In this document: positions 24,401 to 63,021 of the stretch, one piece after another
Numbering within the stretch: the stretch's first letter is position 1
Layout of the letters: the number at the start of each line of letters is the position of its first letter
Origin: Elusimicrobiales bacterium
GTDB lineage: Bacteria > Elusimicrobiota > Elusimicrobia > Elusimicrobiales > UBA9959
Length of the DNA stretch: 64,000 nt
Assembly: GCA_023701245.1 (NCBI GenBank)
Contig: JAMPXK010000006.1
Coordinates: 3,152-67,151, forward strand
Direction of reading: 5' to 3'
The notes under the pieces: generated by a model
Databases searched by the model: none
What the model saw: the letters and a program-made list of their open reading frames with translations, nothing else
What the model was told of the DNA's origin: nothing
Position numbers and translations under genes: made by a program

Positions 24401-24991
24401 TTGTATAATTTGGGCGTGGCAAACTTGGAACTCCTGCTTATAGCGCTCGGCCTCTCTATGGACGCCTTCGCGGTCGCCGTGGCCAGCGGCGCTACCATGA
24501 AGCGCCTGCACCTGCCTCACGCCCTGAAGATGGGTTTTTTCTTCGGCGCCTTCCAGGCCCTTATGCCGGTGCTGGGCTGGCTGGCCGGGCTGGGGATGCG
24601 GAGCTTTATCTCCGGCGTGGACCATTGGATAGCTTTCGTCCTGCTGACCGGTATAGGCGGGAAGATGCTTTACGAGGCTTTCCGGATAAAGGAAGAGGAA
24701 GACTGCGGCGGGCCCAAGACCTGTCCTTTCGATAACGGGACCCTGACGGTACTGGCCATCGCCACCAGCATAGACGCGCTGGCGGTCGGCATAACTTTCT
24801 CGGTGCTGCAGGTCTCCATAATCTCGCCGGTCCTGGTGATAGGCCTGGTGACCTTCCTGATGTCCGTCGCCGGGGTTAAAATGGGGTCCGCCGGCGGCCA
24901 TTTCTTCGAACATAAAATGGAAGCCGCCGGCGGGTTGATCCTGATCGCAATAGGGCTGAAGATCCTGCTCGGGCACCTCGGGGTCTTTTAA
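24401..24991 (+). CDS. mntP: Manganese efflux pump MntP
   Basis: Duplicated SMDAF / SIDAL(A) motifs (LSMDAFAVAVA, TSIDALAVGIT) and six hydrophobic segments. The start is uncertain: TTG 24401 overlaps a TATAAT box, and GTG 24416 is more likely. Confidence 0.8.
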   Translation: MYNLGVANLELLLIALGLSMDAFAVAVASGATMKRLHLPHALKMGFFFGAFQALMPVLGWLAGLGMRSFISGVDHWIAFVLLTGIGGKMLYEAFRIKEEEDCGGPKTCPFDNGTLTVLAIATSIDALAVGITFSVLQVSIISPVLVIGLVTFLMSVAGVKMGSAGGHFFEHKMEAAGGLILIAIGLKILLGHLGVF

Positions 24992-24994
24992 CCC

Positions 24995-25684
24995 TTACTT
25001 GTCCTTTTCCCTGAACCACTTCTCCTTGCCATAGAGCTTCTGTATGCAGTCCTCGCACAGGCCGTGCGTAAAGCGCGCGTTGGACCGTTCCTCCAGGTAA
25101 ACCTCCACTTTCTGCCAGAAGCCTTTGTCGTCGCGGATCTTCTTGCAGTTGGCGCAGATGGGGATGAGCCCCTGCAGGGTCCGGACTTCCTTCAGGGTAT
25201 CCTCCAACTGGGCGTTCTTGCTGATGATCTGGATGTGACCGGTCACTATCTCGCTGAATTCCTCCATCAGGCGGACGATAGGGCCCTCGAAGTTGTTGGG
25301 TTTTTTGTCGAACAGGCAGATGCTGCCGAAGATGTCCCCGTCGGGATTGAAGATCGGCACGCCGGCGTAGGCGACAAAGCCCGCCCTGGCGCCTTCGCTA
25401 TCCTTCCAGAAATCGCTTTTGGTGGCGTCCGGGATGATGAGCTTTTCCCTGGCCTGGATGACGGCCGCGCAGTAGATGCGCAGGCCCTGGCCCATGTCTA
25501 TTCGGGCGTCTTCCTTGAAGGTGGCGTCATTGCCCTGGCTTGCCCCGATTATGCGCAGGGAATTGTCCTCCACGATATTGATGGTGGCGGCGGGCACCTG
25601 CGCCACCTGGGCCAGCAGGTCCGCGATGTTGCGCCACTTGAGGACGGCTATGTCCGGGATCTGTGCGTGTTTCTTTTCGGGCAT
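24995..25684 (-). CDS. GAF-domain protein with C-terminal Cys/His (zinc-ribbon-like) module
   Basis: 229 aa. GAF-like body (FVAYAGVPIFNPDGDIFGSICLFD) followed by IPICANCKKIRDDKGFWQKVEVYLEERSNARFTHGLCEDC. Last gene of the TonB-receptor/kinase operon. Confidence 0.7.
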   Translation of the reverse strand: MPEKKHAQIPDIAVLKWRNIADLLAQVAQVPAATINIVEDNSLRIIGASQGNDATFKEDARIDMGQGLRIYCAAVIQAREKLIIPDATKSDFWKDSEGARAGFVAYAGVPIFNPDGDIFGSICLFDKKPNNFEGPIVRLMEEFSEIVTGHIQIISKNAQLEDTLKEVRTLQGLIPICANCKKIRDDKGFWQKVEVYLEERSNARFTHGLCEDCIQKLYGKEKWFREKDK

Positions 25685-25693
25685 GGTTGCTTC

Positions 25694-26137
25694 CTAGACC
25701 GGCAGCTTTGAAACCGTGGCCCAGTACATCTCGAAGCGGCGGGCCAGTTCGAGGAATTCCTCCAGGGAGGCGGGCTTGGTGATGTAGGAGGCCGCCCCGT
25801 TCTCGTAGCTGCGCACGATGTCCTCGTGGCGCGAGGAGGTGGTCAGCATGACCACGGGGATGCCGCGCAGGGCGGGGTCGCCCTTCAGGCGCTTGAGCAC
25901 CGTCATCCCGTCCATGAGGGGCAGGGTGATGTCCAGCAGTATCAGCGCCGGCTTGAAGGGTTTTTTTCCCGTATGGCGCCCGGAGGCGGCCAGCAGGTCC
26001 AGCGCTTCCTGGCCGTCACGGGCCACCTGCACGTCGTTGATGACCTTGAATTCCTTGAAGGCGCGCTGCGCTATAAGTACGTCGTCCTCGTTGTCCTCCA
26101 CCAGCAGTATGCTGAGGTTTTCCTGTTCGTTCGCCAT
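25694..26137 (-). CDS. Single-domain response regulator (REC only)
   Basis: 147 aa. ILLVEDNEDD and LILLDITLPLMDG motifs, KP at the expected position, no output domain. Confidence 0.85.
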   Translation of the reverse strand: MANEQENLSILLVEDNEDDVLIAQRAFKEFKVINDVQVARDGQEALDLLAASGRHTGKKPFKPALILLDITLPLMDGMTVLKRLKGDPALRGIPVVMLTTSSRHEDIVRSYENGAASYITKPASLEEFLELARRFEMYWATVSKLPV

Positions 26138-26154
26138 GGGGTGTGCTCTCCTTG

Positions 26155-27996
26155 TTAAGGTCTGTTCCTGAGGTCGGCGGGTATCAGGAAGTAGAATACG
26201 GATCCCGCCCCCTCTTTCGACTCCACCCAGACCTTGCCGCCGTGTTCTTCCACGATCTTTTTGACTATAGCCAGTCCCGCGCCCGTTCCCCCGCCGAACT
26301 CCTGGCGGGAATGCAGGCGCTTGAACATCTTGAAGATCTCCTCGTAGTACTGGGCGGGAATGCCTATGCCGTTGTCGCTTACTGAAAATTTCCAGTAGTA
26401 TTCCCCGAACCTCTCCGCCGCTACCCGCACACTCGGGGCCGTGCTGGTATTGTACTTCAGGGCGTTGGCTATAAGGTTCTGAAAGACCTGGCGCAGTTTG
26501 ACCGGGTCGCCGAAGAGCGTGGGCAGCCCCGGCGCCAGCGTTATCTGCGCCTTCTTCTCCTCTATGGCGCTGGCCAGGCTGGCCTCCGCTTCGGCGGCCA
26601 GGACGGCGGTGGAGGTGTCTTCGTACGGGTTGCGCACCCGCGCCAGGCGCGCGTAGCTCAGCAGGTCGTCTATCAAGCGCCGCATTCTCGAGGAGGCTTT
26701 GGAGATCCTGCCCAGGTAGTCGGCCGCCTGGGGTTCCAGCTTCTTGGCGAAATCGGCCAGCAGGATATTGGAGAACATCTCTATGCCGCGCAGCGGCTCT
26801 TTGAGGTCGTGGGAAACGGTGTGGGCGAAGGCGTCCAGTTCGCTGTTGACCATTTCCACTTCTTTAAGGTACTGCGTGAGTTTTGCTTCCGACTGCTTGT
26901 GCTGGGTGGTGTCCTTGAGTATGATGACCGCTTCGCGGCGGCCCGCCCCCCCGGTGAAGGCGGCCGACAGCATGACCGGGATGCGGCTGCCGTCTCCGGC
27001 CTTGAAAAGCAGGTCCATCTCCTTGGTGTGCCCGGTCCAGGACAGCAGGCTGAAAGGTTCCACGCCGCCGTCGGCCTGCGGTTCCAGGAGGTCCTTGATG
27101 TTCAGCGGGGTCTTGAAGTCGTGCCCCGAGAAGACGTGGGCGGCCATGTTGGCCTTCAGGATCTTACCCTCCTCGTCCGTGATGATAAGGGGGTCCGGCA
27201 TGCTCTCCAGCAGGGAATCCAGGTACTGCTTGGAAACCGTGGTCTCGGCCAGGCCTTTGGCCAGCTTATTGAAACTGATAGCTACGTCGCCGAGTTCGTC
27301 TCCGGAGATGACGGGGATGAGCACGTTGTAGTCCCCGTCGCGTACCTTGCGTATGCCGGTGCGCAGCTGGTTGAGCTGCCCGAGGACTATGCGCACGAAC
27401 AGGGCCGACAGCCCCAGCGCCGCGGCCGCGATAAGGACCGCGATTAGGATCAGCCTGTAGATGATGGAGGTTTCCGCCTTTTTGGCGTGCGTGAGCGGCA
27501 GGCCGGCGTACAGGAAGCCGGCCGGGGCCGCCCCGCCCCCGAGCCCCTCGAAAAGGATATCCTCGTTGGAAGGCTTATCCTTCTTGCGCAGGGGCAGCAG
27601 GATCTCCACCGTTTCTTCCCCGTTGTAATCGGCCCGGCGGAAACGGGCCTTTTCTACCGGAGAGGGCGAGTCGAAAAGCCGGCTTTTAAGGACGGTGCCG
27701 GTAAGGGCCACGTTGGTGTGCGCCACGATGGTCCCGTCCGTGGCGACTACGGCGGCGTAGAGGGCCCCGGTCTTCTGCCCGAACAGGTGCAGGGCCTTTA
27801 TCGCTTCAAGTTCGCTGCGGGCGGCCAGGGCTTTCTGCAGGGGCGCGGAAACGTCGCCGGCGGCCGCCGCGGCGTTATCCGTTATCTGGGCGCTCAGGGC
27901 CTCCGTGACGGCCTTGCCGGAAAAATGGATGTTCACCCACAGCGAGACGCCCACCAGCACGAGGATAAAAGAGAAGATCTTGAAATGGAGTTTCAT
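26155..27996 (-). CDS. Sensor histidine kinase (periplasmic Cache-like domain, HAMP, PAS, HisKA, HATPase_c)
   Basis: Two TM segments flank a periplasmic region of about 170 aa. H-box VSHDLKEPL; N/G boxes LIANALKYN, DNGIGI, GGTGAGLA. Start ATG 27996 overlaps the upstream stop (ATGA). Confidence 0.85.
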   Translation of the reverse strand: MKLHFKIFSFILVLVGVSLWVNIHFSGKAVTEALSAQITDNAAAAAGDVSAPLQKALAARSELEAIKALHLFGQKTGALYAAVVATDGTIVAHTNVALTGTVLKSRLFDSPSPVEKARFRRADYNGEETVEILLPLRKKDKPSNEDILFEGLGGGAAPAGFLYAGLPLTHAKKAETSIIYRLILIAVLIAAAALGLSALFVRIVLGQLNQLRTGIRKVRDGDYNVLIPVISGDELGDVAISFNKLAKGLAETTVSKQYLDSLLESMPDPLIITDEEGKILKANMAAHVFSGHDFKTPLNIKDLLEPQADGGVEPFSLLSWTGHTKEMDLLFKAGDGSRIPVMLSAAFTGGAGRREAVIILKDTTQHKQSEAKLTQYLKEVEMVNSELDAFAHTVSHDLKEPLRGIEMFSNILLADFAKKLEPQAADYLGRISKASSRMRRLIDDLLSYARLARVRNPYEDTSTAVLAAEAEASLASAIEEKKAQITLAPGLPTLFGDPVKLRQVFQNLIANALKYNTSTAPSVRVAAERFGEYYWKFSVSDNGIGIPAQYYEEIFKMFKRLHSRQEFGGGTGAGLAIVKKIVEEHGGKVWVESKEGAGSVFYFLIPADLRNRP

Positions 27997-28865
27997 GGGA
28001 AGAGGTAATTGGCCCGGCGCAGTATCTCGGGGGTGAGCTGCAGCTTGCACTTGCGGGCTGCGGAGGCGTTCAGCGTAAGTTCCACCGCCGGCGGGAAGAT
28101 GATCTCCGGCAGTTTTTCGCCGGCCCTGAGGGCCAGGACGGCCCGCGCCGCCGTTTCCCCCATATCCTTGAAGCTGACGCCGATGGAGGCCGCCGCCCCT
28201 TCGCGGGTCATCCCCTTGGTGGAGCCGTAGAACGGGATGCCGTTGTCCCAGGAGAAGTCCCGCATGATCATCAGATTTTCCGGGGTCAGCAGCAGCGGGT
28301 CGGGAGGGAGCCAGAAGGCGTCGGCCGTTCCCCTGGTCTGCCGCAGCAGCGAAGGCATATCCTCTATCGAAGGCACTTTTACGGCGGTGACGGCTATGCC
28401 GTGCGCGGCGCCTTCCTTTGTCAAATTATCGTCGAAATTCCCGAAGACCGGGGTCATCCAGAAAACGCGCAGGCGCCGTATGCCTGGCTGCAGTTCCTTT
28501 ATCCTTAAAAAAATTTCCGTGAAAGAAGGGATCAGGCTGATCTTCGCGCCCTTGGTCCTGCCCGCCGGGTCGCTGACAAAGATCCCCGGAGCCATGCAGT
28601 AGACCACTTGCAGCGGGGCCGGGTAGGAATAGTTGGCCGCTTTTCCCCCGAAAGCCACCACGATGTCGGCAGCGGGCGGGAAGGAGGGTTTGCCTGCGGC
28701 CAGGTTGGAATAGGGTACCTCGCTGCCGTAAGCGGCCTGGAAAGCGGAAAAAGCTTCCATGTAGGCGCCGCCGTCGGAGGACAGTACGGCCACCGTCTCC
28801 CCGGCGAGAACGGCCGCCGGACAGGCCAGCAGCAGGCAGAGTGCCAGCGGGCGGCTAGAATTCAT
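27993..28865 (-). CDS. Periplasmic ABC-type substrate-binding-like protein (PF04392-like), no cognate permease or ATPase nearby
   Basis: 290 aa. Signal peptide, motifs DAFWLPPDP and NGIPFYG. Clear paralog of 57663-58520. Overlaps the TonB-receptor gene by 11 nt. Confidence 0.65.
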   Translation of the reverse strand: MNSSRPLALCLLLACPAAVLAGETVAVLSSDGGAYMEAFSAFQAAYGSEVPYSNLAAGKPSFPPAADIVVAFGGKAANYSYPAPLQVVYCMAPGIFVSDPAGRTKGAKISLIPSFTEIFLRIKELQPGIRRLRVFWMTPVFGNFDDNLTKEGAAHGIAVTAVKVPSIEDMPSLLRQTRGTADAFWLPPDPLLLTPENLMIMRDFSWDNGIPFYGSTKGMTREGAAASIGVSFKDMGETAARAVLALRAGEKLPEIIFPPAVELTLNASAARKCKLQLTPEILRRANYLFP

Positions 28866-30819
28866 AGGCCGCCTTCAAGAAGATCTCGCGCGAGGCGGCA
28901 GGCAGCGGCGCGTGACCGCCGGTGTAGGGCTGTATATAGGCGTAGTTGGACTTGAAGACGTCCTTTATTCCCAGGTTCAGCGTCAGGCGCGGCAGCAGGC
29001 GGTCTTTCGCCTGGAGGTTAAGGTCCGCTATAACGCGCTCTCCGAAAGACCGCAGGGCCCCGTCCCCGGCGTAGCCGTAGCGGCGGGACAGGTAAATGGC
29101 CGAAGGGTTGGCGCTGAAGCCCTTGCCAAGGGGCAGGGAGGCGCCGGCGACGAACTTATGCCGGGGAAAGCCCAGCAGGCAGCTGCCGTGTGCCGGAACG
29201 CTGTAGACGTCCACCCGGTTGCCGCGGGCGGCGTAGGTCTGGTAGGCCAGGTCGGCGCGGTAAGTGCCGCTCTTGAATTTAACCGCCACGCCCATGCCCC
29301 GCGTGCCGGTCCTGTCGTAATTGCGGTAGGTTTCCGCGTTGTTGACGTAGGTGAAGATTATCGGCCGCTTTATGGTGGTCTGGAAGAGATTGGCGGAGAA
29401 GTACAGCGTTTCCGAGGCCTTATAGCCGGCTTCCAGTTCCGCGGAGGTGGCCTTTTCGGGCTTGATCTCTATCCCGTTGTCCGAGGCCAGGCGGATGTTC
29501 TCTATGGCCGGGGCGCGGAAAGCCTGGCTGTAGATGGCCTTGAAGTTGAAATCGTTGAACAGCCGGGTGACGGCGAAACGCGGCACCAGCGAGGCGCCGT
29601 ACTGGGAGTGTTTGTCGTAGCGGGCGCCGACCACAAAATTGGCGGCGGCGGGATTGAAACTGCCCTGGCCGAAGAAAGCGTAATTGTCGAAGTTCGCCTC
29701 CTCCTTGCCGCTAGCGTACCGGGAGGGCGCGGCGGTGAGCTCGTCCACCTTCACCCCGTCGTGAAAGTACTCGCCGCCGGCCAGCACTTCGGCGCCGGTC
29801 CCGAAGCTCCGGAAGGCCGTGAACGCCGCGGTGACGCGCTGCGTCTTCTTGTCGTAGGCGAAATATTCGTCCTTTTCAAGCCAGGCCATGGTCCTGGCGT
29901 AGCTGAGGCGCGGCTCCAGCTTTACCAGCCAGGGCAGGTACAGGGTGTGCTTGAATTCCGCGAAAACGGAAGGGAACTGCACCTTGGCGGACCCGGTGGA
30001 AAGCACTTCCCCGAAATGGTCCCTCTCCCGAAGGGTGTAGCTGTCGAGGATGAGGCGCAGGGAAGTGTCTTTGCCGGCCGCCTGCAGGTTGAGGCTGCGG
30101 GGGCGCAGGTCGGAGGCGCGGTTCATGCTGTAGGAGGTCCCGGAGAAATCCGTGTAGCGGCGGTCGCTGCGCTGGGCTTCTCCCCAGTGGGCCTTGCCGG
30201 AGATCTCGGTGCCGTTGAAAACCTTGCCGAAGGCGTAGCCGGCGTAATTGCGGGCCCTGGCGCGCTCGCCCTGGCCGTAGGCCGCGTAGGCGAGGCTGCC
30301 GTCCAGCGCCCTGGCCGTGCGGGTGCGGATATTGATCACGGCCAGCTCCGCGAAACCGCCGTAGAGGGCGGAGCCGGGACCTTTTATGATCTCTATCTCT
30401 TCTATCTGGTCCACGGGAAAACGGTCGAACTGTACTGTGGAATAGAGGGGTTCGTTGTAGCTCTGGCCGTCCCACATCAGCAGGACCTTGCCTTCGTTGC
30501 CCCAGTTGCCGCGCACCCCGAGGCCCAGGTTGCCCTGGACGTCCATGCCGAAGTCGAATTCCGGGACCAGTTTCAGGACGTCCGTCAGGTCCCGCGCACC
30601 GAGGGCCTGGATCTCTTCCCTGGTGATAACGGCTACCAGTCCGGGCGTTTCACGCAGGCCCATGGCGCTGCGGCTGGCCACCGAAGTCTTTATATTGAGG
30701 GCCTGCTCCAGGGTTGCCCGTTCGAGGCTGAAGAATTCGTCCTCATCGGTGCGCGCGGGCCACCCGGCCAGGAGCGTGCCCGGCAGCAGCAAAAGAGAGA
30801 GAATTAAAAGGCGTAGCAT
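28855..30819 (-). CDS. TonB-dependent outer-membrane receptor
   Basis: 654 aa. Signal peptide, plug motifs (ETPGLVAVITREEI, IEIIKGPGSALYG), beta-barrel repeats, C-terminal aromatic (..AAYEF). No N-terminal signalling extension. Confidence 0.85.
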   Translation of the reverse strand: MLRLLILSLLLLPGTLLAGWPARTDEDEFFSLERATLEQALNIKTSVASRSAMGLRETPGLVAVITREEIQALGARDLTDVLKLVPEFDFGMDVQGNLGLGVRGNWGNEGKVLLMWDGQSYNEPLYSTVQFDRFPVDQIEEIEIIKGPGSALYGGFAELAVINIRTRTARALDGSLAYAAYGQGERARARNYAGYAFGKVFNGTEISGKAHWGEAQRSDRRYTDFSGTSYSMNRASDLRPRSLNLQAAGKDTSLRLILDSYTLRERDHFGEVLSTGSAKVQFPSVFAEFKHTLYLPWLVKLEPRLSYARTMAWLEKDEYFAYDKKTQRVTAAFTAFRSFGTGAEVLAGGEYFHDGVKVDELTAAPSRYASGKEEANFDNYAFFGQGSFNPAAANFVVGARYDKHSQYGASLVPRFAVTRLFNDFNFKAIYSQAFRAPAIENIRLASDNGIEIKPEKATSAELEAGYKASETLYFSANLFQTTIKRPIIFTYVNNAETYRNYDRTGTRGMGVAVKFKSGTYRADLAYQTYAARGNRVDVYSVPAHGSCLLGFPRHKFVAGASLPLGKGFSANPSAIYLSRRYGYAGDGALRSFGERVIADLNLQAKDRLLPRLTLNLGIKDVFKSNYAYIQPYTGGHAPLPAASREIFLKAAYEF

Positions 30820-30849
30820 GGTCCCCCCACGGGCGGCGTCTCCGGGCGG

Positions 30850-31044
30850 TCAGGGCGCGGGCCGGCGCGGCACGATGATGACGGCGGCCGCGTAGGCTAT
30901 GACGCCCGGGATGATGGCGGTCGCGAGCAGGAGGAATACGAATCCCAGGCGCAGCACCACCGGGTCCACTTCGAAATACTCTCCCAGCCCCCCGAGTATC
31001 CCGGCGAAGACTTTATTGGTGTCGCTTCGGTAAAGACGCTTCAT
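30850..31044 (-). CDS. PspC-domain small membrane protein
   Basis: 64 aa. MKRLYRSDTNKVFAGILGGLGEYFEVDPVVLRLGFV is the PspC domain signature, followed by one TM helix. Confidence 0.8.
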   Translation of the reverse strand: MKRLYRSDTNKVFAGILGGLGEYFEVDPVVLRLGFVFLLLATAIIPGVIAYAAAVIIVPRRPAP

Positions 31045-31127
31045 AGCGGATATTCTAATATATTATCACCGGCAACGCTTGCTTTTTCTGGGCCAAGGCG
31101 GCCGGCAAAATTGTAAGATTACGGGTA

Positions 31128-33969: not shown

Positions 33970-34472
33970 GACACCGCCTGGTAATTTTTCTGCTGTCAGG
34001 GTTGGCCGCCTGCGCGCCGGCCCCGGAGGCTCCCATGGACGAAAAACTTAAAAAGCTGACGCCCCTGCAGTACGAGGTGACGCGCAACTGCGGCACGGAG
34101 CCGCCGTTCAAGAACGAATATTGGGATAACCACAGGGCCGGGATCTACGTGGACGTGATCAGCGGCGAGCCGCTCTTCCTGTCCTCGGACAAGTTCGACT
34201 CCGGTTCCGGCTGGCCCAGCTTCACGCGCCCGGTCCCCGGCGCCAAGGTGCAGGAGCGCCGCGACGTCTCGCTGGGAATGGAAAGGACGGAGGTGCGCTC
34301 CGGGTCCAGCGACTCCCACCTGGGTCACGTCTTCCCCGACGGACCCGGCCCCGGCGGGCTGCGCTACTGCGTCAATTCCGCCGCGCTGCGTTTCGTGGCG
34401 CTGGAGGATATGGAGAAAGAAGGCTACGGGCAATACATCCCCCAGGTCAAGGCCGCCAGCCAGGGGAATTAA
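33966..34472 (+). CDS. msrB: Peptide-methionine (R)-S-oxide reductase MsrB, lipoprotein form
   Basis: Lipobox LAAC, GWPSF, HLGHVF and catalytic RYCVNS motifs. The two zinc CxxC pairs are absent. Confidence 0.85.
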
Positions 34473-34642
34473 GTCTCTTCGCGGAACCAGCTTTCCTTGC
34501 CGTAAAGCTCGTGCATGCAGTCCTTGCAAAGCCCGTGCGTAAAGCGCGCGGCCGAATGCTTTTCCAGGTAAGTCTCCACTTTCTGCCAGAACCCCTTGTC
34601 GTCCAGGACGCTTTTACCTCTGGCGCAGAGTTTCGGCGGTCT
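34469..34642 (-). pseudogene. Remnant of a paralog of the C-terminal Cys/His module of 24995-25684
   Basis: Open frame without a start codon encodes ..[54 protein letters not shown]. By eye about three quarters of nt match 24995-25150. An upstream ATG (34679) is in another frame and stops after 21 codons. Confidence 0.7.
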
Positions 34643-34723
34643 TCAGTTCTGCGGCGGCTGGTTTCTTTGCTTTTCGCATGATCCCCTCCCTGCACGACCA
34701 TTTTATATTGATTGCCCGGGTAT

Positions 34724-34752
34724 TTGACACATGCCGCCATATTTTTTACATT
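34724..34752 (+). promoter_or_regulatory. Candidate promoter for the Ehr-type operon
   Basis: TTGACA (34724-29), 17 nt, TACATT (34747-52), within a local low-GC patch about 80 nt upstream of ATG 34832. Confidence 0.35.
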
Positions 34753-34831
34753 ATTGATACCGCTTGTTTTCCCCGCCACGGGAAACTTCAGCGTCGTTCT
34801 TTCGGCGTGGTCGTCAGGGTCTTTGCTATAA

Positions 34832-36799
34832 ATGCCGCTCTTCCTGCTTTCCTTTCTCCTGCTGCTTTGCGGCGCCGCGCTGCCGCTTTTGCTGTGGCGG
34901 CGCCCGCTCGCGGCCCAGCGCTCCGCGGTCTGCTGCGCCGTGGCCGCTTCCGCGGTGGGTCTGGTTCCCGTCCTGCGCGTGCTCTTTACCGGGGTGCCCG
35001 CTTCCTTTTCCTTCCCCTGGTCCGTCCCCCTGGCCTCTTTCTCGCTGCTGCTGGACCCGCTTTCCGCTCTTTTCGCGGTTCCCCTGCTCCTGCTTACCGG
35101 CCTGGCGGCGGTGTACGGCGCCGGGTATCTGGCGGCCTGCGCGGGCAAAAAACCGCTGGCCCTGGCCTGGGCCGCTTTCAACCTCCTTACCGCCTCCATG
35201 CTGCTGGTTTTTTCGGCGGCTAACGCCGTGCTCTTCCTGCTAGGCTGGGAACTCATGGCGGCGGCTTCCTTTCTCTTGGTGCTTTTCGAGCATGAGCGCG
35301 AGCAGGCCCGCAAAGCCGGCTTTATCTACCTGGCGGCGGGCGGTACCGGCGCCCTGCTGCTGCTGGGCCTTTTTCTGCTCCTGGGAGCGGGCGCGCCCTC
35401 CATGGATTTTTCGGATTTCAGGGTTCCCTCCGGCGGCGCGGCGACGGCCGCTTTTCTGCTTGCCCTCGGTGGCTTCGGCCTTAAGGCCGGCTTCATCCCG
35501 CTCCATGTCTGGCTGCCCGAGGCCCACCCGGCCGCCCCCAGTCATGTTTCGGCGGTAATGAGCGGCATCATGATAAAGACGGGGCTCTATGGCATCATCC
35601 GGGTGCTTGGCCTGCTGAAGCCCTGGCCGGAATGGTGGGGCTGGCTGCTGCTCGGTCTCGGCCTGGTTTCCTGCCTTGGCGGCGCCTTGTTCGCCCTGGC
35701 CCAGCACGAACTCAAACGGGTCCTGGCGTATTCCAGCATAGAGAACGTCGGCATTATCCTGCTGGCGCTCGGCCTCGGCGTGGTTGCGGCGGCCTGCGGC
35801 GCGCATCAACTGGCTTCGCTGGCTTTTGCCGGCGCCCTGCTGCACGTTTTCAACCACGCCCTTTTCAAGGGGCTGCTCTTTATGGGCGCCGGGGCCGTCC
35901 TGCACGGCACTGGTACCGGAGAGTTGGAGGCCCTTGGCGGCCTTTCCAAACGCATGCCCGCGGCCGCGGCTTTCTTCATGGCCGGCTCCGCGGCGGCCTG
36001 CGCGCTGCCCCCCCTAAACGGCTTTGCCGGGGAGTTCCTTGTTTACCTGGGAGCTTTGCGGGCGCTCAATTCCCCGGGGTCCGTCGCGCTGGCCGGCGTG
36101 CTGGCCGGGCTGGCCCTGGCGGCCGCCGGCGCCGTGGCCGCGGCCGCTTTCACCCGGGCCGCGGGTACCGCTTTCCTGGGCGAGCCGCGCACCGAGCGCG
36201 CCGCCGGGGCTCACGCGCCGGGGCCGCTCATGGCCGTTCCCATGTTCCTGCTGGCGCTGCTCTGCCTGCTGTCCGGGCTGGCCGCGCCGCTGCTGCTCGG
36301 CCCTCTTTCCGCAGCCGTAAGCGCGGGGTTCGGAGGTTATTACGGTTTTGCGGCCGGCCTGGAAGCCATGGGCCCGTTCCTGTATATTTCCGCGGCCGCT
36401 CTCTGCCTGCTGGGGCTTATAGCTCTGGCCGCGGCCAAGCGCCGGGCTTTCCTGGGCGGGCGGCAGCCGGCTTCAGGGGTGACCTGGGACTGCGGCTATG
36501 CCGCCCCGACGGCGCGAATGCAGTACGGGGCTTCTTCTTTCGCGCAGCCGCTCACGGATTTCTTCCAGCCGCTCCTGCGTAAACTGGGGCAGTACCCGGT
36601 CATTTCCGAATATTTCCCGGCCAAGGCTTCTTTCTCCACCGAGGCCCAGGCGGTTTTTTATAATTCGGTCTATACCCCCGCCGCGGTGCGCCTGCGCGAC
36701 CTGGCCTACAGGTTCAGCTGGCTGCAGCACGGCCGGTTGCAGCTTTACATCATGTATATCGTCGTCACGCTTATAGGGCTCCTGCTATGGAAATTGTAA
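34832..36799 (+). CDS. NuoL/HyfB-like antiporter-type membrane subunit (EhrA-like)
   Basis: 655 aa, highly hydrophobic. Motifs GWELMAAASFLLV, HVWLPEAHPAAPSHVSA and AYSSIENVG are typical of Mrp/NuoL-type subunits. Confidence 0.8.
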   Translation: MPLFLLSFLLLLCGAALPLLLWRRPLAAQRSAVCCAVAASAVGLVPVLRVLFTGVPASFSFPWSVPLASFSLLLDPLSALFAVPLLLLTGLAAVYGAGYLAACAGKKPLALAWAAFNLLTASMLLVFSAANAVLFLLGWELMAAASFLLVLFEHEREQARKAGFIYLAAGGTGALLLLGLFLLLGAGAPSMDFSDFRVPSGGAATAAFLLALGGFGLKAGFIPLHVWLPEAHPAAPSHVSAVMSGIMIKTGLYGIIRVLGLLKPWPEWWGWLLLGLGLVSCLGGALFALAQHELKRVLAYSSIENVGIILLALGLGVVAAACGAHQLASLAFAGALLHVFNHALFKGLLFMGAGAVLHGTGTGELEALGGLSKRMPAAAAFFMAGSAAACALPPLNGFAGEFLVYLGALRALNSPGSVALAGVLAGLALAAAGAVAAAAFTRAAGTAFLGEPRTERAAGAHAPGPLMAVPMFLLALLCLLSGLAAPLLLGPLSAAVSAGFGGYYGFAAGLEAMGPFLYISAAALCLLGLIALAAAKRRAFLGGRQPASGVTWDCGYAAPTARMQYGASSFAQPLTDFFQPLLRKLGQYPVISEYFPAKASFSTEAQAVFYNSVYTPAAVRLRDLAYRFSWLQHGRLQLYIMYIVVTLIGLLLWKL

Positions 36800-56595: not shown

Positions 56596-56725
56596 ATCCC
56601 AATATTTGACCGGGGGCCAAAGGACCTATGCCGCATATAGGCCTTTTGGCCCTTGCGGAATAGGCCGTATGGCTTAAACTATGTTTGATTTAAGTCATTG
56701 ACCAGTGTCAAGCAGCGGAGGAAAG

Positions 56726-57607
56726 TTGAAACTCAACGGTGTACTGCTCGCGGCTGTTCTTACGGTCCTTCCCTTTTCCCGCCTGGCGGCGCAAGCCCCG
56801 GCTTTCGAGGCCCTCAGGGTTTCGGCGGCCGGGGTCGATCTTTCCGCACTGCCCCAGCCCGAGGCGCGCCTCTTTAACGCCCCCCTTCCCGGCCACCGCG
56901 CCCTTTCCGGCAAGGCGCTCTTCGATTACCTGCATCAGGCCACCGTGCCCGCTCCCCGCAAAGCGTTCCCTTCCTACGACGGCTCGCGGGCTTTCATGTA
57001 TTCCAAGGCCGATAATGCCGGCTGCAACGGCGCCCCCGGCATCATAACCCTGTATTCCCGCGTCTGCGTGAACGGCTCCAGCGACAGCGGCAACGCCTAC
57101 CGCGAGACCGGGGATATGAACAAGGACGGCGTCGTGGACAACTTCATCAACGCCGAGCATATCTGGCCGCAGAGCTATTTCAACAGCGCCCTGCCCATGG
57201 TGGCGGACCTCCACCACCTCGCCCCCACTTTCCCTACGCCCAACGGCCGCCGGGGCAACCTCCGGTTCGCGCGCGTCTCCAAGCCCATCTACAGCACCTC
57301 GTCCGGCTCTATGCTCGGTAAAGAAGGTTTCGAGCCGGCCGACGAGGCCAAAGGCAATGTCGCCCGCGCCATCTTCTACTTCGTGGTGCGCTACCATGAC
57401 CGCAATATCCGGCAGGGAATGGATTATACGGGTTTCTGGATCAACAATGTGCAGATGCTGCTGGAGTGGAACCGGCAGGACCCGCCCGACGCCGCTGAAC
57501 TGCGCCGCAACGCGCTCGTAGAGGAATTCCAGGGCAACCGCAATCCTTTCATAGACGAGCCGGCCCTGGCCGAGCAGATAGGCGCCGACGTTTTCAGGGC
57601 TCATTAA
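56726..57607 (+). CDS. Extracellular endonuclease I family (EndA/Dns-like), paralog 1
   Basis: NAEHIWPQSYF, DLHHLAPTF, KGNVARAIFYF, GNRNPFID. TTG 56726 (4 nt after GGAGG) is preferred over GTG 56705 and gives signal peptide MKLNGVLLAAVLTVLPF. Confidence 0.82.
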   Translation: MKLNGVLLAAVLTVLPFSRLAAQAPAFEALRVSAAGVDLSALPQPEARLFNAPLPGHRALSGKALFDYLHQATVPAPRKAFPSYDGSRAFMYSKADNAGCNGAPGIITLYSRVCVNGSSDSGNAYRETGDMNKDGVVDNFINAEHIWPQSYFNSALPMVADLHHLAPTFPTPNGRRGNLRFARVSKPIYSTSSGSMLGKEGFEPADEAKGNVARAIFYFVVRYHDRNIRQGMDYTGFWINNVQMLLEWNRQDPPDAAELRRNALVEEFQGNRNPFIDEPALAEQIGADVFRAH

Positions 57608-57627
57608 AGCCCGGCGCCGGTCAGCAG

Positions 57628-57657
57628 GAAGGCCCCTTCCGGGGCCTTCTTTTTTTT
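57628..57657 (+). terminator. Rho-independent terminator after endonuclease I paralog 1
   Basis: GAAGGCCCC-ttcc-GGGGCCTTC followed by TTTTTTTT. Confidence 0.85.
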
Positions 57658-57662
57658 ATCGG

Positions 57663-58520
57663 TTATCTGGCCGCCACAGGCCAGCGGCATTTTTCGGGCA
57701 GAACTTTGTTGACCCGCAGGCGGACGTCCTCTACGTAAGTCACCTGCGGCAGCCGGTCGCCCTTATGCAGGGTCCTCAGGGCGCGCGCGGCGGCGGCCCC
57801 CGCCTGGGCGAACTCCGGGGCGTAGGAAGCCGTAGCCCCGCTCCCCACTAGGGCGGAGGTAGGGGCGTAGAAGGGAATGCCGTTGGCGCAGGAAAAACTG
57901 GCCAGGAGCATGATGCTGGACTGGGTGATCAGGGCGGGGTCCGGCATGAGCCAGAAGGCGTCCATCTTTCCCATCAGCCGGCGCAGGCGCTCCGGGAAAG
58001 CTTCCGGATTCTTCAATTTGGAGGAGATCACCTCTATGCCGGCGGCTTTGCCCGCCTCCCGCAGGTCCGAAATGTAGTCTTCACCGGGATAGGCCGTCCA
58101 GAAAACGGCCAGGCGCCGCAGGCCCGGCTGAAAGGCCTTGTAAGCGGCCAGGGCGGGGCCGGGGGCGGGTACCATGGAGATCTCGTGAAAGCCGCGGCCC
58201 CGGAGGGCCACCGGGGCCAGCGCGTAGACTATATGCGCGCCCTGCGGGTAATCAAGGGCGGCGGCCTTCGCCCCGAAAGCCGCGGTATGCCTGGTTTCGT
58301 CAGTTGGAACCTCTCCTGGTTGGGAAAGGTCGAACAGGGTGAAAGGTTCCCCCATCTCGGCTTTGAACTCCAGATACGCCTCGGCGTAGGGGCCGGTGTT
58401 GACGGAGAGTACGGCGGTCAGGTCACCGGCCAGGCAGGCCGAGGGCAACAGCAGCAGCGCGCCGGCCGCCAGCCAGGGCGGCGGTCTCAGTCGTTTGTTC
58501 CTGTCTCTGTTCTCCGTCAT
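57663..58520 (-). CDS. Periplasmic ABC-type substrate-binding-like protein (PF04392-like), paralog 2
   Basis: 285 aa. Signal peptide; DAFWLMPDP and NGIPFYAP match paralog 27993-28865. Immediately downstream of a TonB-dependent receptor. Confidence 0.65.
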   Translation of the reverse strand: MTENRDRNKRLRPPPWLAAGALLLLPSACLAGDLTAVLSVNTGPYAEAYLEFKAEMGEPFTLFDLSQPGEVPTDETRHTAAFGAKAAALDYPQGAHIVYALAPVALRGRGFHEISMVPAPGPALAAYKAFQPGLRRLAVFWTAYPGEDYISDLREAGKAAGIEVISSKLKNPEAFPERLRRLMGKMDAFWLMPDPALITQSSIMLLASFSCANGIPFYAPTSALVGSGATASYAPEFAQAGAAAARALRTLHKGDRLPQVTYVEDVRLRVNKVLPEKCRWPVAAR

Positions 58521-58528
58521 TTCACCCT

Positions 58529-60718
58529 TTAAAATTTATAGGTCAGGCCGGCCGTCGCCTCGAAAGGATTTTGCGGCGCCCCGGCCATGGTGTCCGGCCC
58601 TGCACCGTAGGCTGCATTGTAGTAACGGCGGTCAAAAATATTCTTAAACTGCAGATAGGCCGTGAGGCCGGCCAGTTTGGCGCAGGCGTAGCGTATGAGC
58701 AGGTCCGCTACGGCAAAGGGCGCCACTCTTCCCCCGTCCTGATTGCGGCTATAGGAGCGGTAGAGCAGTTTTGGCGTTACGGACAATCTGCCGCGCAGCA
58801 CGGACAGGCCCGCCAGGAGCGTGTGTCTGGAGTTGAACGGCATCGGGGCGCCGTCCTGTCTGGCTTCCGAAAGTGTATATGACGCCCAAGGTTCCAGGCT
58901 GCAGCGGCCGGCACGCCATACGGCGTCGGCGCGTAAAGTGGTGCCGAAGGTCTCCGCGGTTCCGGTGTTGATGGGTTGTTCCAGTGTGTCAACTTCCACG
59001 CCCTTGAACAGACCGGGGCCTATGGAGACGTCCTGGATAAGGTCATAGACTTTGGTGTAATACGGATTCAGGGAGACCCTGAGGGAACTCCCGAAAGAAT
59101 GGGTCAAAGAGGCTTCCGCGGAGCGCAGCTTTTCCGGGGCCAGGCCCTCGTTGGGAATATGGAAGAAGTAACTATGATAGCCGCTGGCCGCCGTCGGCGA
59201 TGAAACAAAAGAACCGAAATGCCTGTGCGTGTCGCTCGGAGAGGGCGAGAGGAAGGCTTCTCCGTAGAGAAGCTTGACCACTGTGTCCTCACTGGCGCCC
59301 GGCTTCCAGACAAGCCCCGCCCGCGGGTTCCAGGTCTCGCCATAAGTGCTGTTGCGGTCGTAGCGCAATGCCAGTGACAGGGAAACGTTCCCCAGCTGGC
59401 TGGCCTGGAGCCTTATGAAAGCCCCGGTATTGGAGTACACCAGGGAATAGAAATCCACCGGGATGTCGGAGCCGGTGTAGGTAAAGCCCTGGGAGACCGG
59501 GCTTTTCGAAGTGTCGAACTTGCGGGAAAGGTCCGCGGTGTAGGGCAGTACCGTGCTCTGCTGGTAGGTCAGTCCCAACAGTACGGGGTATCCTTGAGCC
59601 GGCTCGAACGACAATAACTCATGGATGGACGTGGTCTGCGCCGAAGCGTATTTATAAGCGGGCTGATAGGAAGAAAAAGAGTTGAGGAACTTGGTCTCGG
59701 GTGAAAGTTCGTAATCGTAATAGGAGGCCAGGCTGGTAAGGGTCCACGCCTCGTCGGGAGAAGTATACGAGTGCCTGCCGTAGACGGTCCAATAGCCGGT
59801 GGCGAAACGGGCGTCCTTCACGTACTGTGAGAATTCCGGCTTTACGCCTATGGAAGAGGAATGGGACTCTCCCATGCGGATGAACCCCATGTCTACATTT
59901 CCAAGGGTCACGCGGGAATTCATGTAGGAGGATACTTCCCTGGCGTCATACGGGCGCGGCGCCACGGTAGCCGTTGCCGTGCTTCCCACTGTCTTCATAA
60001 GGCCCTGCTGGTACTCGCCGTTGTGCCAGGCATAGTCTGTTTTGTAGAAGGCCGGAAGTTCCGGCCCTTCCGAACTGGCCGCGGCGTACGTAAGGGAAGC
60101 GGAGGGCAGCCGGGCACCGGGGACGTTGCTGCTCAGCCGGGATCCGGCGGATGCGTCCGCGTTCTTCGAATCGAATCTGCCGTACGCCGCGGACACGCGG
60201 CTGTGGTTGTCGGAGCGGGTTACCACGTTTATGACCCCGCTGAACGCGTCCGCCCCATATAGGGAAGACATCGGGCCGAGTACCACCTCCACCCTTTGGG
60301 CGTCCGCCAGCGACAACTGCTGCGCTATCGCGAACATATCTCCTGTAGGCGGGGTAATGCGCACCCCGTCGTACATCACGAGCAGGCGCTCATTATCATG
60401 AATGCCCCGGACGCTTATCACATTCAATCTCCCCTCGTCGGAATTGCGCTGCACCTGGAATTGGGGAGTGTCGTTGAGCAGGTCCGCCAGGGACCTGTAA
60501 CCGCGTTTTTCCAGGGTCTCGGCAGTAATGACATAAGCGGTGGCGGCCGTGTCGGAAGGGCGTTCTTCGGCGTAGGAAGCCGCCAGCAGCGGCGTGTCCA
60601 TGATGTCGCCCAGCGTGGACTGGAAAAAGTCCACATCCGAGCCCTCCGGCTGGGCGCAGCTTGTGGCGGCGTAAAAGAACAGGCCGCATGCTGCGGCTAA
60701 AAACGCTTTCTGTCTCAT
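58529..60718 (-). CDS. TonB-dependent outer-membrane receptor (second)
   Basis: 729 aa. Signal peptide, plug (AYVITAETLEKRGY, VEVVLGPMSSLYGADAF), barrel, C-terminal ..GLTYKF. Confidence 0.85.
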   Translation of the reverse strand: MRQKAFLAAACGLFFYAATSCAQPEGSDVDFFQSTLGDIMDTPLLAASYAEERPSDTAATAYVITAETLEKRGYRSLADLLNDTPQFQVQRNSDEGRLNVISVRGIHDNERLLVMYDGVRITPPTGDMFAIAQQLSLADAQRVEVVLGPMSSLYGADAFSGVINVVTRSDNHSRVSAAYGRFDSKNADASAGSRLSSNVPGARLPSASLTYAAASSEGPELPAFYKTDYAWHNGEYQQGLMKTVGSTATATVAPRPYDAREVSSYMNSRVTLGNVDMGFIRMGESHSSSIGVKPEFSQYVKDARFATGYWTVYGRHSYTSPDEAWTLTSLASYYDYELSPETKFLNSFSSYQPAYKYASAQTTSIHELLSFEPAQGYPVLLGLTYQQSTVLPYTADLSRKFDTSKSPVSQGFTYTGSDIPVDFYSLVYSNTGAFIRLQASQLGNVSLSLALRYDRNSTYGETWNPRAGLVWKPGASEDTVVKLLYGEAFLSPSPSDTHRHFGSFVSSPTAASGYHSYFFHIPNEGLAPEKLRSAEASLTHSFGSSLRVSLNPYYTKVYDLIQDVSIGPGLFKGVEVDTLEQPINTGTAETFGTTLRADAVWRAGRCSLEPWASYTLSEARQDGAPMPFNSRHTLLAGLSVLRGRLSVTPKLLYRSYSRNQDGGRVAPFAVADLLIRYACAKLAGLTAYLQFKNIFDRRYYNAAYGAGPDTMAGAPQNPFEATAGLTYKF

Positions 60719-60751
60719 TGCTCTATCCCCCCTCGAAAAAACGCGGTCAGG

Positions 60752-62035
60752 CTACTGCGCCAGCTTGTATGGGTCTTCGGTAACGCTGAGCATGTACATG
60801 GCTGCCTTGACGTTCCTGGGGACGGCCTTGCCTATCATGGCCGCGCCCGGGTAAAAAGTTGTCCCTTCCAGTTCCGTGGTGAACGCGAAGACGCCGCGCT
60901 TCTCATAGGCCCAGTCCATGGTGTCGCCCGTGGCCACGTAAAGGTCGCTGGCCTGCTGGGGCCTGTAGCCGGTGGCGGCGGCCATGGCCTTGGCCATGGT
61001 CTCGAAAACCTTGCGGTCGCGGGCGCTCTCTACCGGAGTGCTTTTGCCCGCCCAGGGGTACAGCAGGAGGCTGGAGTAGGAATGATAGCTCATCAGCGTC
61101 CGTAACCCGGGCCTGGTTTCTATAAAGGCCTTTACCGCCAGAGTTTCGGGTTCGGAGAAAGCGTAGGGCCCGCAATAGGTGTCGGCGCCGGGCGAATGGG
61201 AGGCGCCGGCCTGGCACCAGCGGGAGTCGTAGTTGCGGTTCAGGTCCACCCCTATGCTCTTGTCCGGGTTGACGCGCGCGTTCTTGCGGTGCCAGCGGTA
61301 TTTCCCGGTCTGGAGGTCGTATTCCGCGCCGTCGGGGTTGGTCATCGGGGCGACGTAGATGTCCAGGGTGTCGAGGTACCTGCGTATCTCGGGATCGGTC
61401 TTGCGCTCGAGCAGGTAGGCGGCCACGCCCAGAGCTACTTCGTTGGAAAGGTGCTCGCGGCCGTGGTGGTTGCCCATAAAGAACGCGGCCGGCCTGGCCG
61501 ACGGGGCTTCCCCCTTCTCGGCCGGGTTTATGCGCAGGCACCAGATGTCCCGGCCCTGCACGGTTTTGCCCAGGGAGAAGAGCGAGGTTTCCGCCGGGTT
61601 GGCGGCCGCCAGGGCCCGCAGTTCCTCCAGCGTCTCGGCGTAATTGTGATAGGGCGCGTCGGCCGCCGGGAAATCCTTGAGGTGGTTTTTGGCGTAGTCC
61701 CGGATGGGCTGGCGGCTTTTGACGAAAAAGCCTTTCGCGGCCAGTTGCTCCATGGCCGTTTTCTCTATAAGGCCTGAAACGAAGCCTTCGCGGATCTCCG
61801 CGATATCCAGCCCGGCCGCGAGCAGCGCGGTGCGGTCGAATTTGTCCTCGGCGGCTACCGTGACCCAGTAGCGCGTGTCCGCCGCCAGGTGATCGAACGC
61901 TCCCGGCAGCCGCGGTTCAGGCGCGGGCGCGGCGGCCCGGGGGCCCGCGGCCTGCTCCAGCTGGGCATACGGGCCAAGGCAGAAAGCGAGAGGCGCGTTA
62001 AAGGCGAGGGCGGCGGCAAGGAGGTTTTTTTTCAT
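60752..62035 (-). CDS. M14-family zinc carboxypeptidase, secreted
   Basis: Start ATG 62035 (MKKNLLAAALAF signal peptide). HHGREH zinc motif, YHSYSSLLLYPW, TTELEG. Confidence 0.8.
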   Translation of the reverse strand: MKKNLLAAALAFNAPLAFCLGPYAQLEQAAGPRAAAPAPEPRLPGAFDHLAADTRYWVTVAAEDKFDRTALLAAGLDIAEIREGFVSGLIEKTAMEQLAAKGFFVKSRQPIRDYAKNHLKDFPAADAPYHNYAETLEELRALAAANPAETSLFSLGKTVQGRDIWCLRINPAEKGEAPSARPAAFFMGNHHGREHLSNEVALGVAAYLLERKTDPEIRRYLDTLDIYVAPMTNPDGAEYDLQTGKYRWHRKNARVNPDKSIGVDLNRNYDSRWCQAGASHSPGADTYCGPYAFSEPETLAVKAFIETRPGLRTLMSYHSYSSLLLYPWAGKSTPVESARDRKVFETMAKAMAAATGYRPQQASDLYVATGDTMDWAYEKRGVFAFTTELEGTTFYPGAAMIGKAVPRNVKAAMYMLSVTEDPYKLAQ

Positions 62036-62133
62036 TGAGGACCTGTTATGGAAATATAGCAAAACCGAGGGCTTGCGGGCCATGTTTTTAAGGTATAATA
62101 TCCGTGGCGTACTAAGACGAACTTGGAGGCATT

Positions 62134-63021
62134 TTGAAACGCAACTTGCTGTTCGCCGTACTTGCCCTGACCGCCGCAGGTTTCTGGTTCCCTTCTTCCG
62201 CGCAGGACCTGCCGAGCCTCGAACAATTCTACTCCGCCCTTCCCGGGCAGGAAGCGCCGCCTTCCCCCGCCATTCCCTTCCGCGCCGCAGCCTATCTGGC
62301 CGGCGCGGTTTCTGTTAACGGCGAGAAACTTTTTCAGTACCTGCACGAGGCCACCGAGTATCCCGTACTTGGGACCGGCACGGATTACCTTAAAGCCAAG
62401 AAGTACATGTTCTCCGTCGCCGACAATACCGGGTGCGGCGGGCGCCCGGGCGTTACCTGCGCTTATTCCCTGATCTGCGTCCCCGGGGCCAGCGAGCACG
62501 GCGCCGACTACAAGGAGCCGGGCGACGCCAACGGCGACGGCATCCAGGACAGGGACGGGATGAACGCGGAACATGTCTGGCCGCAGGGGTTCTTCGACGA
62601 AGCCAAGCCCATGAAGTCCGACCTGCATCACATTTTCCCCACCTTCATTACCGTCAACAACATGCGGGGCAGCCAGCCTTTCGGTGAAGTCTCCAGCCCC
62701 GTCTACGGCACCAACAGCGGCTCGCAGTTGGGCGATGACGGCTTCGAACCGGCCGACGCCGTCAAGGGCGACGTGGCCCGCGCCATGCTCTATTTCGTAC
62801 TGCGCTACCACGACCGCTCTATTCGCGACGGCGTGGATTACGCCGATTTCTGGAAGAACCGCGTCCCGCTGTTCATGAAATGGCACCTCCAGGACCCACC
62901 CGACGCCGCCGAGCGCCGCCGCAACGACCTGATAGATTCCTACCAGGGCAACCGCAATCCCTTCGTGGACGATCCCCGGCTTGTGGAAAAGATAGGCCTG
63001 AAGGTTTTCCAGGCGCATTGA
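62134..63021 (+). CDS. Extracellular endonuclease I family, paralog 2
   Basis: NAEHVWPQGFF, DLHHIFPTF, KGDVARAMLYF, GNRNPFVD. TTG start 4 nt after GGAGG. Signal peptide. TATAAT at 62094-62099. Confidence 0.82.
   Translation: MKRNLLFAVLALTAAGFWFPSSAQDLPSLEQFYSALPGQEAPPSPAIPFRAAAYLAGAVSVNGEKLFQYLHEATEYPVLGTGTDYLKAKKYMFSVADNTGCGGRPGVTCAYSLICVPGASEHGADYKEPGDANGDGIQDRDGMNAEHVWPQGFFDEAKPMKSDLHHIFPTFITVNNMRGSQPFGEVSSPVYGTNSGSQLGDDGFEPADAVKGDVARAMLYFVLRYHDRSIRDGVDYADFWKNRVPLFMKWHLQDPPDAAERRRNDLIDSYQGNRNPFVDDPRLVEKIGLKVFQAH

Follow-up and report, generated by a model that had tools for sequence, protein, structure and literature searches.

A candidate envelope sensing system combining a TonB-dependent receptor, a PF04392-type binding protein and a two-component system in Elusimicrobiales

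In a stretch of 64,000 nucleotides from an Elusimicrobiales bacterium (GenBank assembly GCA_023701245.1, contig JAMPXK010000006.1, positions 3,152 to 67,151), hereafter called the window, we found six co-oriented genes on the minus strand (24995-31044) that encode, in this order, a small PspC-domain membrane protein, a TonB-dependent receptor (TBDR1), a periplasmic substrate-binding protein of the PF04392 type (SBP1), a membrane histidine kinase, a stand-alone receiver (REC) protein and a GAF protein with a C-terminal Cys/His tail. On balance, we favor the view that these proteins form a three-tier envelope sensing system, running from TBDR1 to SBP1, from SBP1 to the kinase, and from there to the receiver and the GAF-tail protein. 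TBDR1 would bring a ligand across the outer membrane, and SBP1, which would be made in step with both of its neighbors through overlapping reading frames, would capture it in the periplasm and have the sCache-type periplasmic domain of the kinase as its partner, in place of an ATP-binding cassette (ABC) transporter. Ligand-loaded (or ligand-free) SBP1 would dock on the sCache domain and switch the kinase through HAMP and PAS; the kinase would then phosphorylate the receiver, which would most likely act on the GAF-tail protein with its Cys/His module as the output, and the GAF domain may also integrate a cytoplasmic small-molecule signal. Of these steps, the coupling of SBP to sensor appears likely and the role of the TBDR as ligand supplier reasonably probable, whereas the step from the receiver to the GAF-tail protein is tentative and, in our estimate, rather doubtful. 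It is from the gene content, the overlaps, the folds and an adjacency conserved across paralogues and phyla that we infer the flow of the ligand, the contact between SBP and kinase, the phosphotransfer and the link from receiver to GAF-tail protein.

Scanning one genome per species for related SBPs yielded 80 loci with 82 SBP genes (loci are numbered with the prefix L). About 30 Elusimicrobiales species share the order PspC-TBDR-SBP-kinase-REC-GAF together with its flanks, a conservation in relatives on which the initial annotation, a reading of the window from its sequence alone, had made its proposal depend. Because synteny among close relatives alone might be due to inheritance, we also compared paralogous and distant loci. 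A TBDR gene lies directly upstream of the SBP gene in 69 of the 76 places with sufficient upstream sequence, and an sCache/HAMP sensor with an N-terminus matching that of the kinase lies directly downstream in 47 of the 82 SBP places. Homologues sharing 26-38% identity with the SBP occur in other Elusimicrobiota, a Latescibacterota genome, a metagenomic contig (L089) and Acidobacteriota, and the gene downstream of these always begins with a transmembrane segment (TM), sCache_3_2, another TM and HAMP. The outputs that follow differ, being HisKA kinases (L043, L046, L047 and L050), HisKA_2 kinases (L052 and L089), hybrid kinases with REC, with or without Hpt (L049, L055, L062 and L078), or methyl-accepting chemotaxis proteins (MCPs; L082 and L084), and OmpR-type or helix-turn-helix-REC regulators are present at some distant loci. 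Overlaps of 4 nt, or zero gaps, between the SBP and sensor genes recur at L046, L050, L055, L064, L075, L084 and L087, and overlaps of 4 nt between the TBDR and SBP genes were seen at distant loci. Exchange of the output beside an unchanging sensor-domain partner is a classical signature, and SBP and sensor domain are therefore taken to form a functional input pair. The conserved core would thus consist of the binding protein and the periplasmic sensor domain, to which a TBDR is often added upstream as the input. Adjacency conserved across lineages, as is characteristic of binding-protein-dependent sensors, was therefore found here, and chance does not account for the arrangement, which is seen again in dozens of species as well as at paralogous and distant loci.

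Another setting was found in the che operons of Acidobacteriota (L084, L087 and L088), which have the order CheY-CheA-CheW-SBP-MCP-MCP-CheR-CheB and contain no TBDR gene. The MCP encoded directly after the SBP has a small periplasmic Cache-like domain that matches the periplasmic profile of the kinase weakly (hhalign probability 64%, E 6e-5). An apparent SBP-MCP fusion in L082 was rejected, as the long open reading frame (ORF) proved to be a wrong-frame artefact of high GC and the locus contains two genes. PF04392 loci were also observed in Myxococcota (L079 and L080), and in L080 a CheA-type kinase gene is located about 1 kb upstream of the SBP gene.

The strand, packing and domain calls of the initial annotation agreed with the gene coordinates and Pfam matches (Table 1), and both overlaps it reported were seen, namely 11 nt between TBDR1 and SBP1 and an ATGA between SBP1 and the kinase. 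The other junctions are gaps of 30 nt (PspC/TBDR1), 17 nt (kinase/REC) and 9 nt (REC/GAF). Because the genes are separated by short gaps or overlap, and the only sizeable non-coding stretch, which is also the longest gap bordering or inside the cluster, is the 83 nt upstream of the PspC gene, co-transcription of the six genes as one unit is plausible. A scan for consensus promoters and terminators revealed no convincing internal promoter or terminator, the result being no better than that for shuffled sequence. The PspC gene is found upstream of the TBDR gene in most orthologous Elusimicrobiales loci and is absent at distant loci. At the other end of the cluster, the convergent mntP gene (24401-24991, plus strand) ends 3 nt from the stop codon of the GAF-tail gene (24991-24995), a configuration conserved in relatives, and there is therefore no room for a conventional terminator between them.

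Table 1. Features of the gene cluster and of the second receptor/binding-protein pair in the window. The Pfam cut-offs are 25.9 bits for PF04392 and 28.4 bits for sCache_3_2.
Feature	Coordinates	Strand	Basis or remark
PspC-domain small membrane protein (64 aa), first gene of cluster	30850..31044	-	PF04024, E 7e-20
TBDR1, TonB-dependent receptor (654 aa), without STN domain	28855..30819	-	Plug PF07715, E 5.5e-18
SBP1, periplasmic PF04392-type binding protein (290 aa)	27993..28865	-	PF04392, 53.3 bits (cut-off 25.9)
Membrane histidine kinase (613 aa): TM1, periplasmic sCache-like domain of ~150 aa, TM2, HAMP, PAS, HisKA, HATPase_c	26155..27996 (from ATG)	-	Pfam
Stand-alone receiver protein (147 aa)	25694..26137	-	PF00072, E 2e-19
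GAF protein with C-terminal Cys/His tail (229 aa)	24995..25684	-	PF01590 and PF13185, residues 18-148
Cys/His tail core, residues 170-222: IPICANCKKIRDD.G.W...E.Y...F.HG.C..C	25019..25177	-	Tail span 24998-25222
Intergenic region, 83 nt, shared with divergent DAO/BFD oxidoreductase gene	31045..31127	.	Likely promoter region of cluster
TBDR2, TonB-dependent receptor (729 aa)	58529..60718	-	Plug, E 1.5e-21; 30% identical to TBDR1 in the plug region
SBP2, PF04392-like binding protein (285 aa)	57663..58520	-	PF04392, 25.7 bits, just under cut-off; 37% identical to SBP1

SBP1 scores above the gathering threshold of PF04392, and its AlphaFold2 model, with a predicted local distance difference test score (pLDDT) of 89.8, has the two-lobe fold of type-I binding proteins. 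The nearest folds in the PDB are those of the PF04392 proteins 3lkv, 3lft and 6hnj/6hni (Foldseek E 1e-13 to 1e-17, at identities of 13-16%), and the SBP1 profile matched 3lft with an E of 2e-15. The ligands of these proteins are the aromatic amino acids Phe, Trp and Tyr, and the motif W-L-P-P-D-P, conserved in the cleft region of the SBP1 family, aligns with W-V-P-I-D-N of the Trp-binding 3lft. Because of its full two-lobe fold and this correspondence, SBP1 looks like a genuine ligand binder and not a degenerate scaffold. The possibility that it is a lipoprotein was rejected, since the Cys in the signal peptide is not conserved among homologues, and SBP1 is therefore treated as soluble. The family is strongly expanded in Elusimicrobia. 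As the initial annotation had stated, an ABC permease or ATPase, the usual partner of a PF04392 protein, is not encoded nearby: none was found among the called genes within about 10 kb of the cluster or in any annotated SBP context, and no ORF of at least 150 aa across the whole window carries an ABC signature motif.

In the kinase, HAMP, HisKA (E 2e-14, with the H-box SHDLKEP) and HATPase_c (E 7.5e-29) scored above their cut-offs, and PAS just under its own. Its periplasmic domain aligns with the sCache_3_2-positive sensors encoded downstream of the distant SBP homologues and has invariant residues in common with them. The receiver, which follows the kinase at all orthologous loci, has no output domain and, judged by eye, an intact acidic pocket with D69 (LLD(69)ITLP), T99 and K121, so that kinase and receiver have the sequence features expected of a classical two-component phosphotransfer pair. 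Among 25 orthologous loci we also observed faster divergence of the periplasmic parts, by a factor of about 1.7 relative to the cytoplasmic ones, the mean distances being 0.48 for the SBP and 0.46 for the sensor domain of the kinase, and 0.26, 0.22 and 0.29 for the kinase core, REC and GAF, respectively. An extra kinase-like gene, with 27-28% identity to the kinase core, is located between the GAF-tail gene and mntP in L008, L014, L019 and L051.

TBDR1 has a signal peptide, a plug, a conserved TonB-box-like sequence (NIKTSVAS) and an aromatic residue, Phe, at its C-terminus, and its residues 62-532 align to BtuB in a phmmer search in which CirA was also matched; the Pfam barrel model gave no match. 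Thus, TBDR1 shows the features expected of a TonB-dependent receptor, which are a plug, a 22-strand barrel, a TonB box and a C-terminal aromatic residue. The receptor was said in the initial annotation to be devoid of an N-terminal signalling extension, and indeed Plug is its sole Pfam match; because only about 30 mature residues precede the plug, versus the approximately 80 aa that an STN domain needs, TBDR1 cannot hold such a domain. In addition, genes for extracytoplasmic function (ECF) sigma or anti-sigma factors are absent among the called genes within about 10 kb, both here and at the orthologous loci. Classical TonB-dependent cell-surface signalling, already discounted in the initial annotation, was therefore rejected, with neither an STN domain nor a sigma/anti-sigma pair being present. 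A short N-terminal motif, D-x-F-x-F-F (D-E-F-F in TBDR1), is common to SBP-linked TBDRs from different phyla and is followed by a TonB-box-like strand, V/I-x-T-A-S-R; it was seen at 30700-30760 and 60600-60650 of the window (both minus strand) and in L052, L055 and L089, and could be a docking site.

The GAF-tail protein is the next one after the receiver at every orthologous locus. Its tail (PICxxCKKIRDDxGxW...ExY...FxHGxCxxC) contains C177-x2-C180 and H207-G-x-C210-x2-C213, and its last 60 or so residues matched no Pfam or NCBIfam model and no PDB sequence, nor did a fold search against the PDB yield a match (best E 4). When the 75-residue tail was compared by phmmer with 1.84 billion representative sequences, matches were found in 21,248 clusters at 50% identity, 15,423 of them at E <=1e-10. 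Among the 150 best matches, the tail is mostly at or near the C-terminus, although many of the top ones have two matched stretches, some of which are internal. Seven residues, a Pro, two Cys, a Trp, a His and two more Cys, are invariant among 117 diverse carriers, in which the N-terminal partners are PAS (41), REC (15), SBP_bac_3 (6), GAF (5) and HAMP (5), and also Cache domains, PocR and MASE6. Because these partners are sensor or receiver modules, the tail stands where an output domain would be expected; it seems to be a signalling output domain that is very common yet unnamed, and is probably metal-binding. Carriers are named in the source annotations after their N-terminal domains only, and a literature search that included the motif string CKKIRD yielded no description of the tail, although the search was thin on subscription journals and an earlier description is possible. 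The initial annotation had placed the output in the receiver-only protein and possibly the GAF/Cys-His protein, which is consistent with the presence of both at all orthologous loci and with REC-tail fusions elsewhere. Simple fusions of this type (P0313 and P0360) suggest, by Rosetta-stone logic, that receiver and GAF-tail protein are functionally linked here. At present the output is blank for tens of thousands of PAS, GAF, REC and Cache proteins that carry the tail, and learning what it binds would annotate a sizeable share of the signalling proteins now named only for their sensor domains. A second tail gene was observed in the window (34447-35313, minus strand; tail at 34475-34630, 69% identical over 52 residues) and is the counterpart of the PAS-PAS-tail proteins of relatives (e.g., L003:1211-2179).

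Several observations weigh against the proposed system. Altogether 28 TBDR-SBP pairs, including a second pair in the window, have no adjacent sensor, and the SBP must therefore also work without one or signal in trans. Conversely, SBP-sensor pairs without a TBDR exist (L049, L050 and the che clusters), and import by a TBDR is therefore not intrinsic to the SBP-sensor unit. The co-occurrence of TBDR, PF04392 protein and histidine kinase that the initial annotation had named as a check was seen in the frequencies of upstream TBDRs and downstream sensors given above, but it is not obligatory on either side. In a mirror-tree (Mantel) comparison of the 25 orthologous loci, the SBP correlated with the periplasmic and cytoplasmic parts of the kinase to the same degree (0.60 and 0.62, respectively) and the partial correlations were small, so that no specific signal between SBP and periplasmic domain was seen beyond shared phylogeny. 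The kinase itself scored 16.6 bits with sCache_3_2, below the Pfam cut-off of 28.4 bits, which its homologues exceed (up to 51 bits). The model of the tail has moderate confidence (pLDDT 68), and the step from receiver to GAF-tail protein draws solely on adjacency and on fusions in other organisms.

An alternative is that the TBDR and SBP serve the uptake of nutrients (amino acids, peptides or similar), with an inner-membrane transporter of the major facilitator superfamily (MFS) or ABC type encoded elsewhere. The kinase would then respond directly to the compound taken up, or to some other cue, and its link to the uptake genes would be no more than that of a regulator or of a co-regulated gene. 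The 28 sensor-less pairs would fit this view; such pairs adjoin genes for peptidases (M14 and M29), nucleases, an MFS transporter and amino-acid enzymes, and the solved PF04392 proteins, which bind Trp, Tyr or Phe, serve ABC importers. We nevertheless consider this explanation unlikely: no ABC permease or ATPase is present in any inspected context, the locus contains no DNA-binding regulator to control uptake genes, and the adjacency of SBP and sensor, often with overlapping codons, persists without a TBDR and with a chemoreceptor in a che operon, where the SBP gene precedes that of an MCP and a pure transport role therefore makes little sense. The same TBDR-less pairs, in the che clusters, L049 and L050, also argue against a model in which the SBP, instead of picking up free ligand, binds to the TBDR at its periplasmic face or N-terminus and reports the loaded or energised state of the receptor to the kinase, thereby replacing STN and anti-sigma factor. 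The overlap of the TBDR and SBP genes (11 nt here and 4 nt at distant loci), the inheritance of TBDR-SBP pairs as units and the D-x-F-x-F-F motif ahead of the TonB box in SBP-linked TBDRs across phyla would fit such occupancy reporting, but the SBP retains a complete two-lobe fold and the W-L-P-P-D-P motif in its cleft region, and we regard this model as decidedly improbable. Least probable of all, and hardly to be expected, is that transport and signalling genes without a functional link have merely been inherited together; the flanking genes for the DAO oxidoreductase, MntP, DUF2062 and DUF748 proteins are also syntenic in close relatives, but the SBP-sensor and TBDR-SBP adjacencies recur at paralogous loci and in other phyla with entirely different flanks and sensor outputs.

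A sensing route through SBP1 and the kinase has parallels in known systems. Binding-protein-dependent sensors include LuxP/LuxQ, TorT/TorS, HptA/HptS, CBP/ChiS and MBP/Tar (PMC8050422), and as in these, a soluble extracytoplasmic two-lobe binding protein is encoded beside a membrane sensor with a small periplasmic domain, there is no dedicated transporter at the locus, and one binding-protein family serves both kinases and chemoreceptors. The Elusimicrobiales system differs from them in having a binding protein of PF04392, a single module of the sCache_3_2 type as the partner domain, and an overlapping TBDR gene immediately upstream; the review cited mentions neither TonB nor the outer membrane. 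Our literature search revealed no signalling role for PF04392, which is described there only from aromatic amino-acid transport proteins. Like TrpX (3lft), the Vibrio cholerae protein 3lkv and Clostridioides difficile CD0873 (6hni), SBP1 scores above the PF04392 threshold and has the two-lobe type-I fold, but it shares only 13-16% identity with them, and its clade is flanked by TBDRs and sensors with no ABC partner in the annotated contexts.

Import of a ligand by a TBDR before a kinase senses it in the periplasm is already known from PfeA/PfeS/PfeR and PirA/PirS/PirR of Pseudomonas aeruginosa (PMC8001512), in which, as here, a two-component system goes together with a TBDR that carries no signalling extension. 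In the Pfe system no binding protein acts as a go-between, and expression of the TBDR gene is induced by a DNA-binding response regulator, whereas here an SBP is interposed, the sole receiver at the locus has no output domain, DNA-binding or other, and the output consists of the receiver-only protein and the GAF/Cys-His protein. The FecA/FecR/FecI system likewise couples a TonB-dependent receptor to gene-adjacent signal transduction; unlike it, the present cluster has no STN, anti-sigma or ECF sigma factor, and a binding protein and phosphotransfer would be expected to take their place. In SusC/SusD loci of Bacteroidota, a ligand fragment imported with the aid of TonB is sensed periplasmically by a kinase encoded at the same locus; the sensor binds the ligand itself, SusD is a lipoprotein on the cell surface, and the regulator has a DNA-binding domain. 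The system proposed here would resemble those with hybrid two-component sensors in that an imported ligand is sensed in the periplasm by a locus-encoded kinase, but it differs in having an SBP as the periplasmic partner and no DNA-binding regulator at the locus. The route put forward in the initial annotation, from a TBDR-imported ligand to the SBP and on to the periplasmic domain of the kinase, is thus favored by comparative genomics, with its frequent upstream TBDRs and recurring SBP-sensor adjacency, but the TBDR is dispensable and import-dependent sensing by a kinase is not new. The system combines such sensing with co-sensing by a binding protein and adds an unusual output, and is not a new category. 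No description of a triad of TBDR, SBP and kinase or cyclase was found in the literature search, which was thin on subscription journals, so that an earlier description is possible.

If the proposed system is real, a binding protein would be the adaptor in a third coupling of TonB-dependent import to signalling, besides the anti-sigma/ECF route and direct sensing of the PfeS type. In addition, a large clade without transporters, whose members are routinely labelled as substrate-binding proteins of ABC transporters, would gain a role in signalling, a reassignment that matters for metabolic reconstructions of uncultured phyla. The system is testable, since three of its soluble or periplasmic domains can be expressed.

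The TBDR-SBP pairs of the survey appear to be interchangeable cassettes for input. In relatives, the kinase-REC-GAF genes at this genomic site are preceded by a receptor of the TBDR1 type, by a quite different TBDR (23-35% identity) or by two tandem TBDR-SBP pairs, with the tandem TBDR-SBP-TBDR-SBP arrangement before a single kinase-REC-GAF module, or swaps of the TBDR class, occurring in L003/L011, L012, L017 and L022. A neighbor-joining tree of the SBPs, constructed without support values, contains three clades, one of distant, sensor-linked proteins, one of SBP2 that goes with TBDR2 and is never sensor-linked, and one of SBP1, in which the subclades correspond roughly to the TBDR class encoded next to them. 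Nested within the SBP1 clade are six pairs without a sensor, which might act on the same kinase in trans, as might the first of the two pairs at the tandem loci. More broadly, a proposal that we hold to have somewhat less than an even chance is that the PF04392 clade has given up transport for a dedicated role as periplasmic co-receptor of sCache sensors and is coupled gene by gene to TBDRs in Elusimicrobiota and relatives; the TBDR-SBP pairs would be exchangeable, stackable cassettes that let one kinase sense compounds unable to cross the outer membrane unaided, and the pathway would end in an unnamed, probably metal-binding Cys/His domain that, being present in about 21,000 clusters, would rank among the commoner unannotated output modules in bacterial signal transduction.

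Neighboring genes of the sensor-less relatives give a weak hint of amino-acid-, peptide- or nucleoside-like ligands. The sensor-less pairs of the SBP1 clade (L034-L038 and L041) adjoin genes for an MFS transporter, an M29 aminopeptidase, an agmatine-deiminase-like protein (PAD_porph) and an argininosuccinate-lyase-like protein, which hints at amino-acid or peptide ligands for these pairs. The second receptor/binding-protein pair of the window (57663-60718), described in the initial annotation as having no signalling genes, indeed has none adjoining it, and an adjacent sensor was never seen among the orthologues of SBP2, which is without the last 16 or so residues of SBP1. A gene for an M14 carboxypeptidase (60752-62083, minus strand) lies directly upstream, and the pair is flanked by two genes for secreted Endonuclease_1 proteins (56705-57607 and about 62134-63021, both plus strand). 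This scavenging context (56705-63021 in the window) is kept in about 20 Elusimicrobia species (L053-L076).

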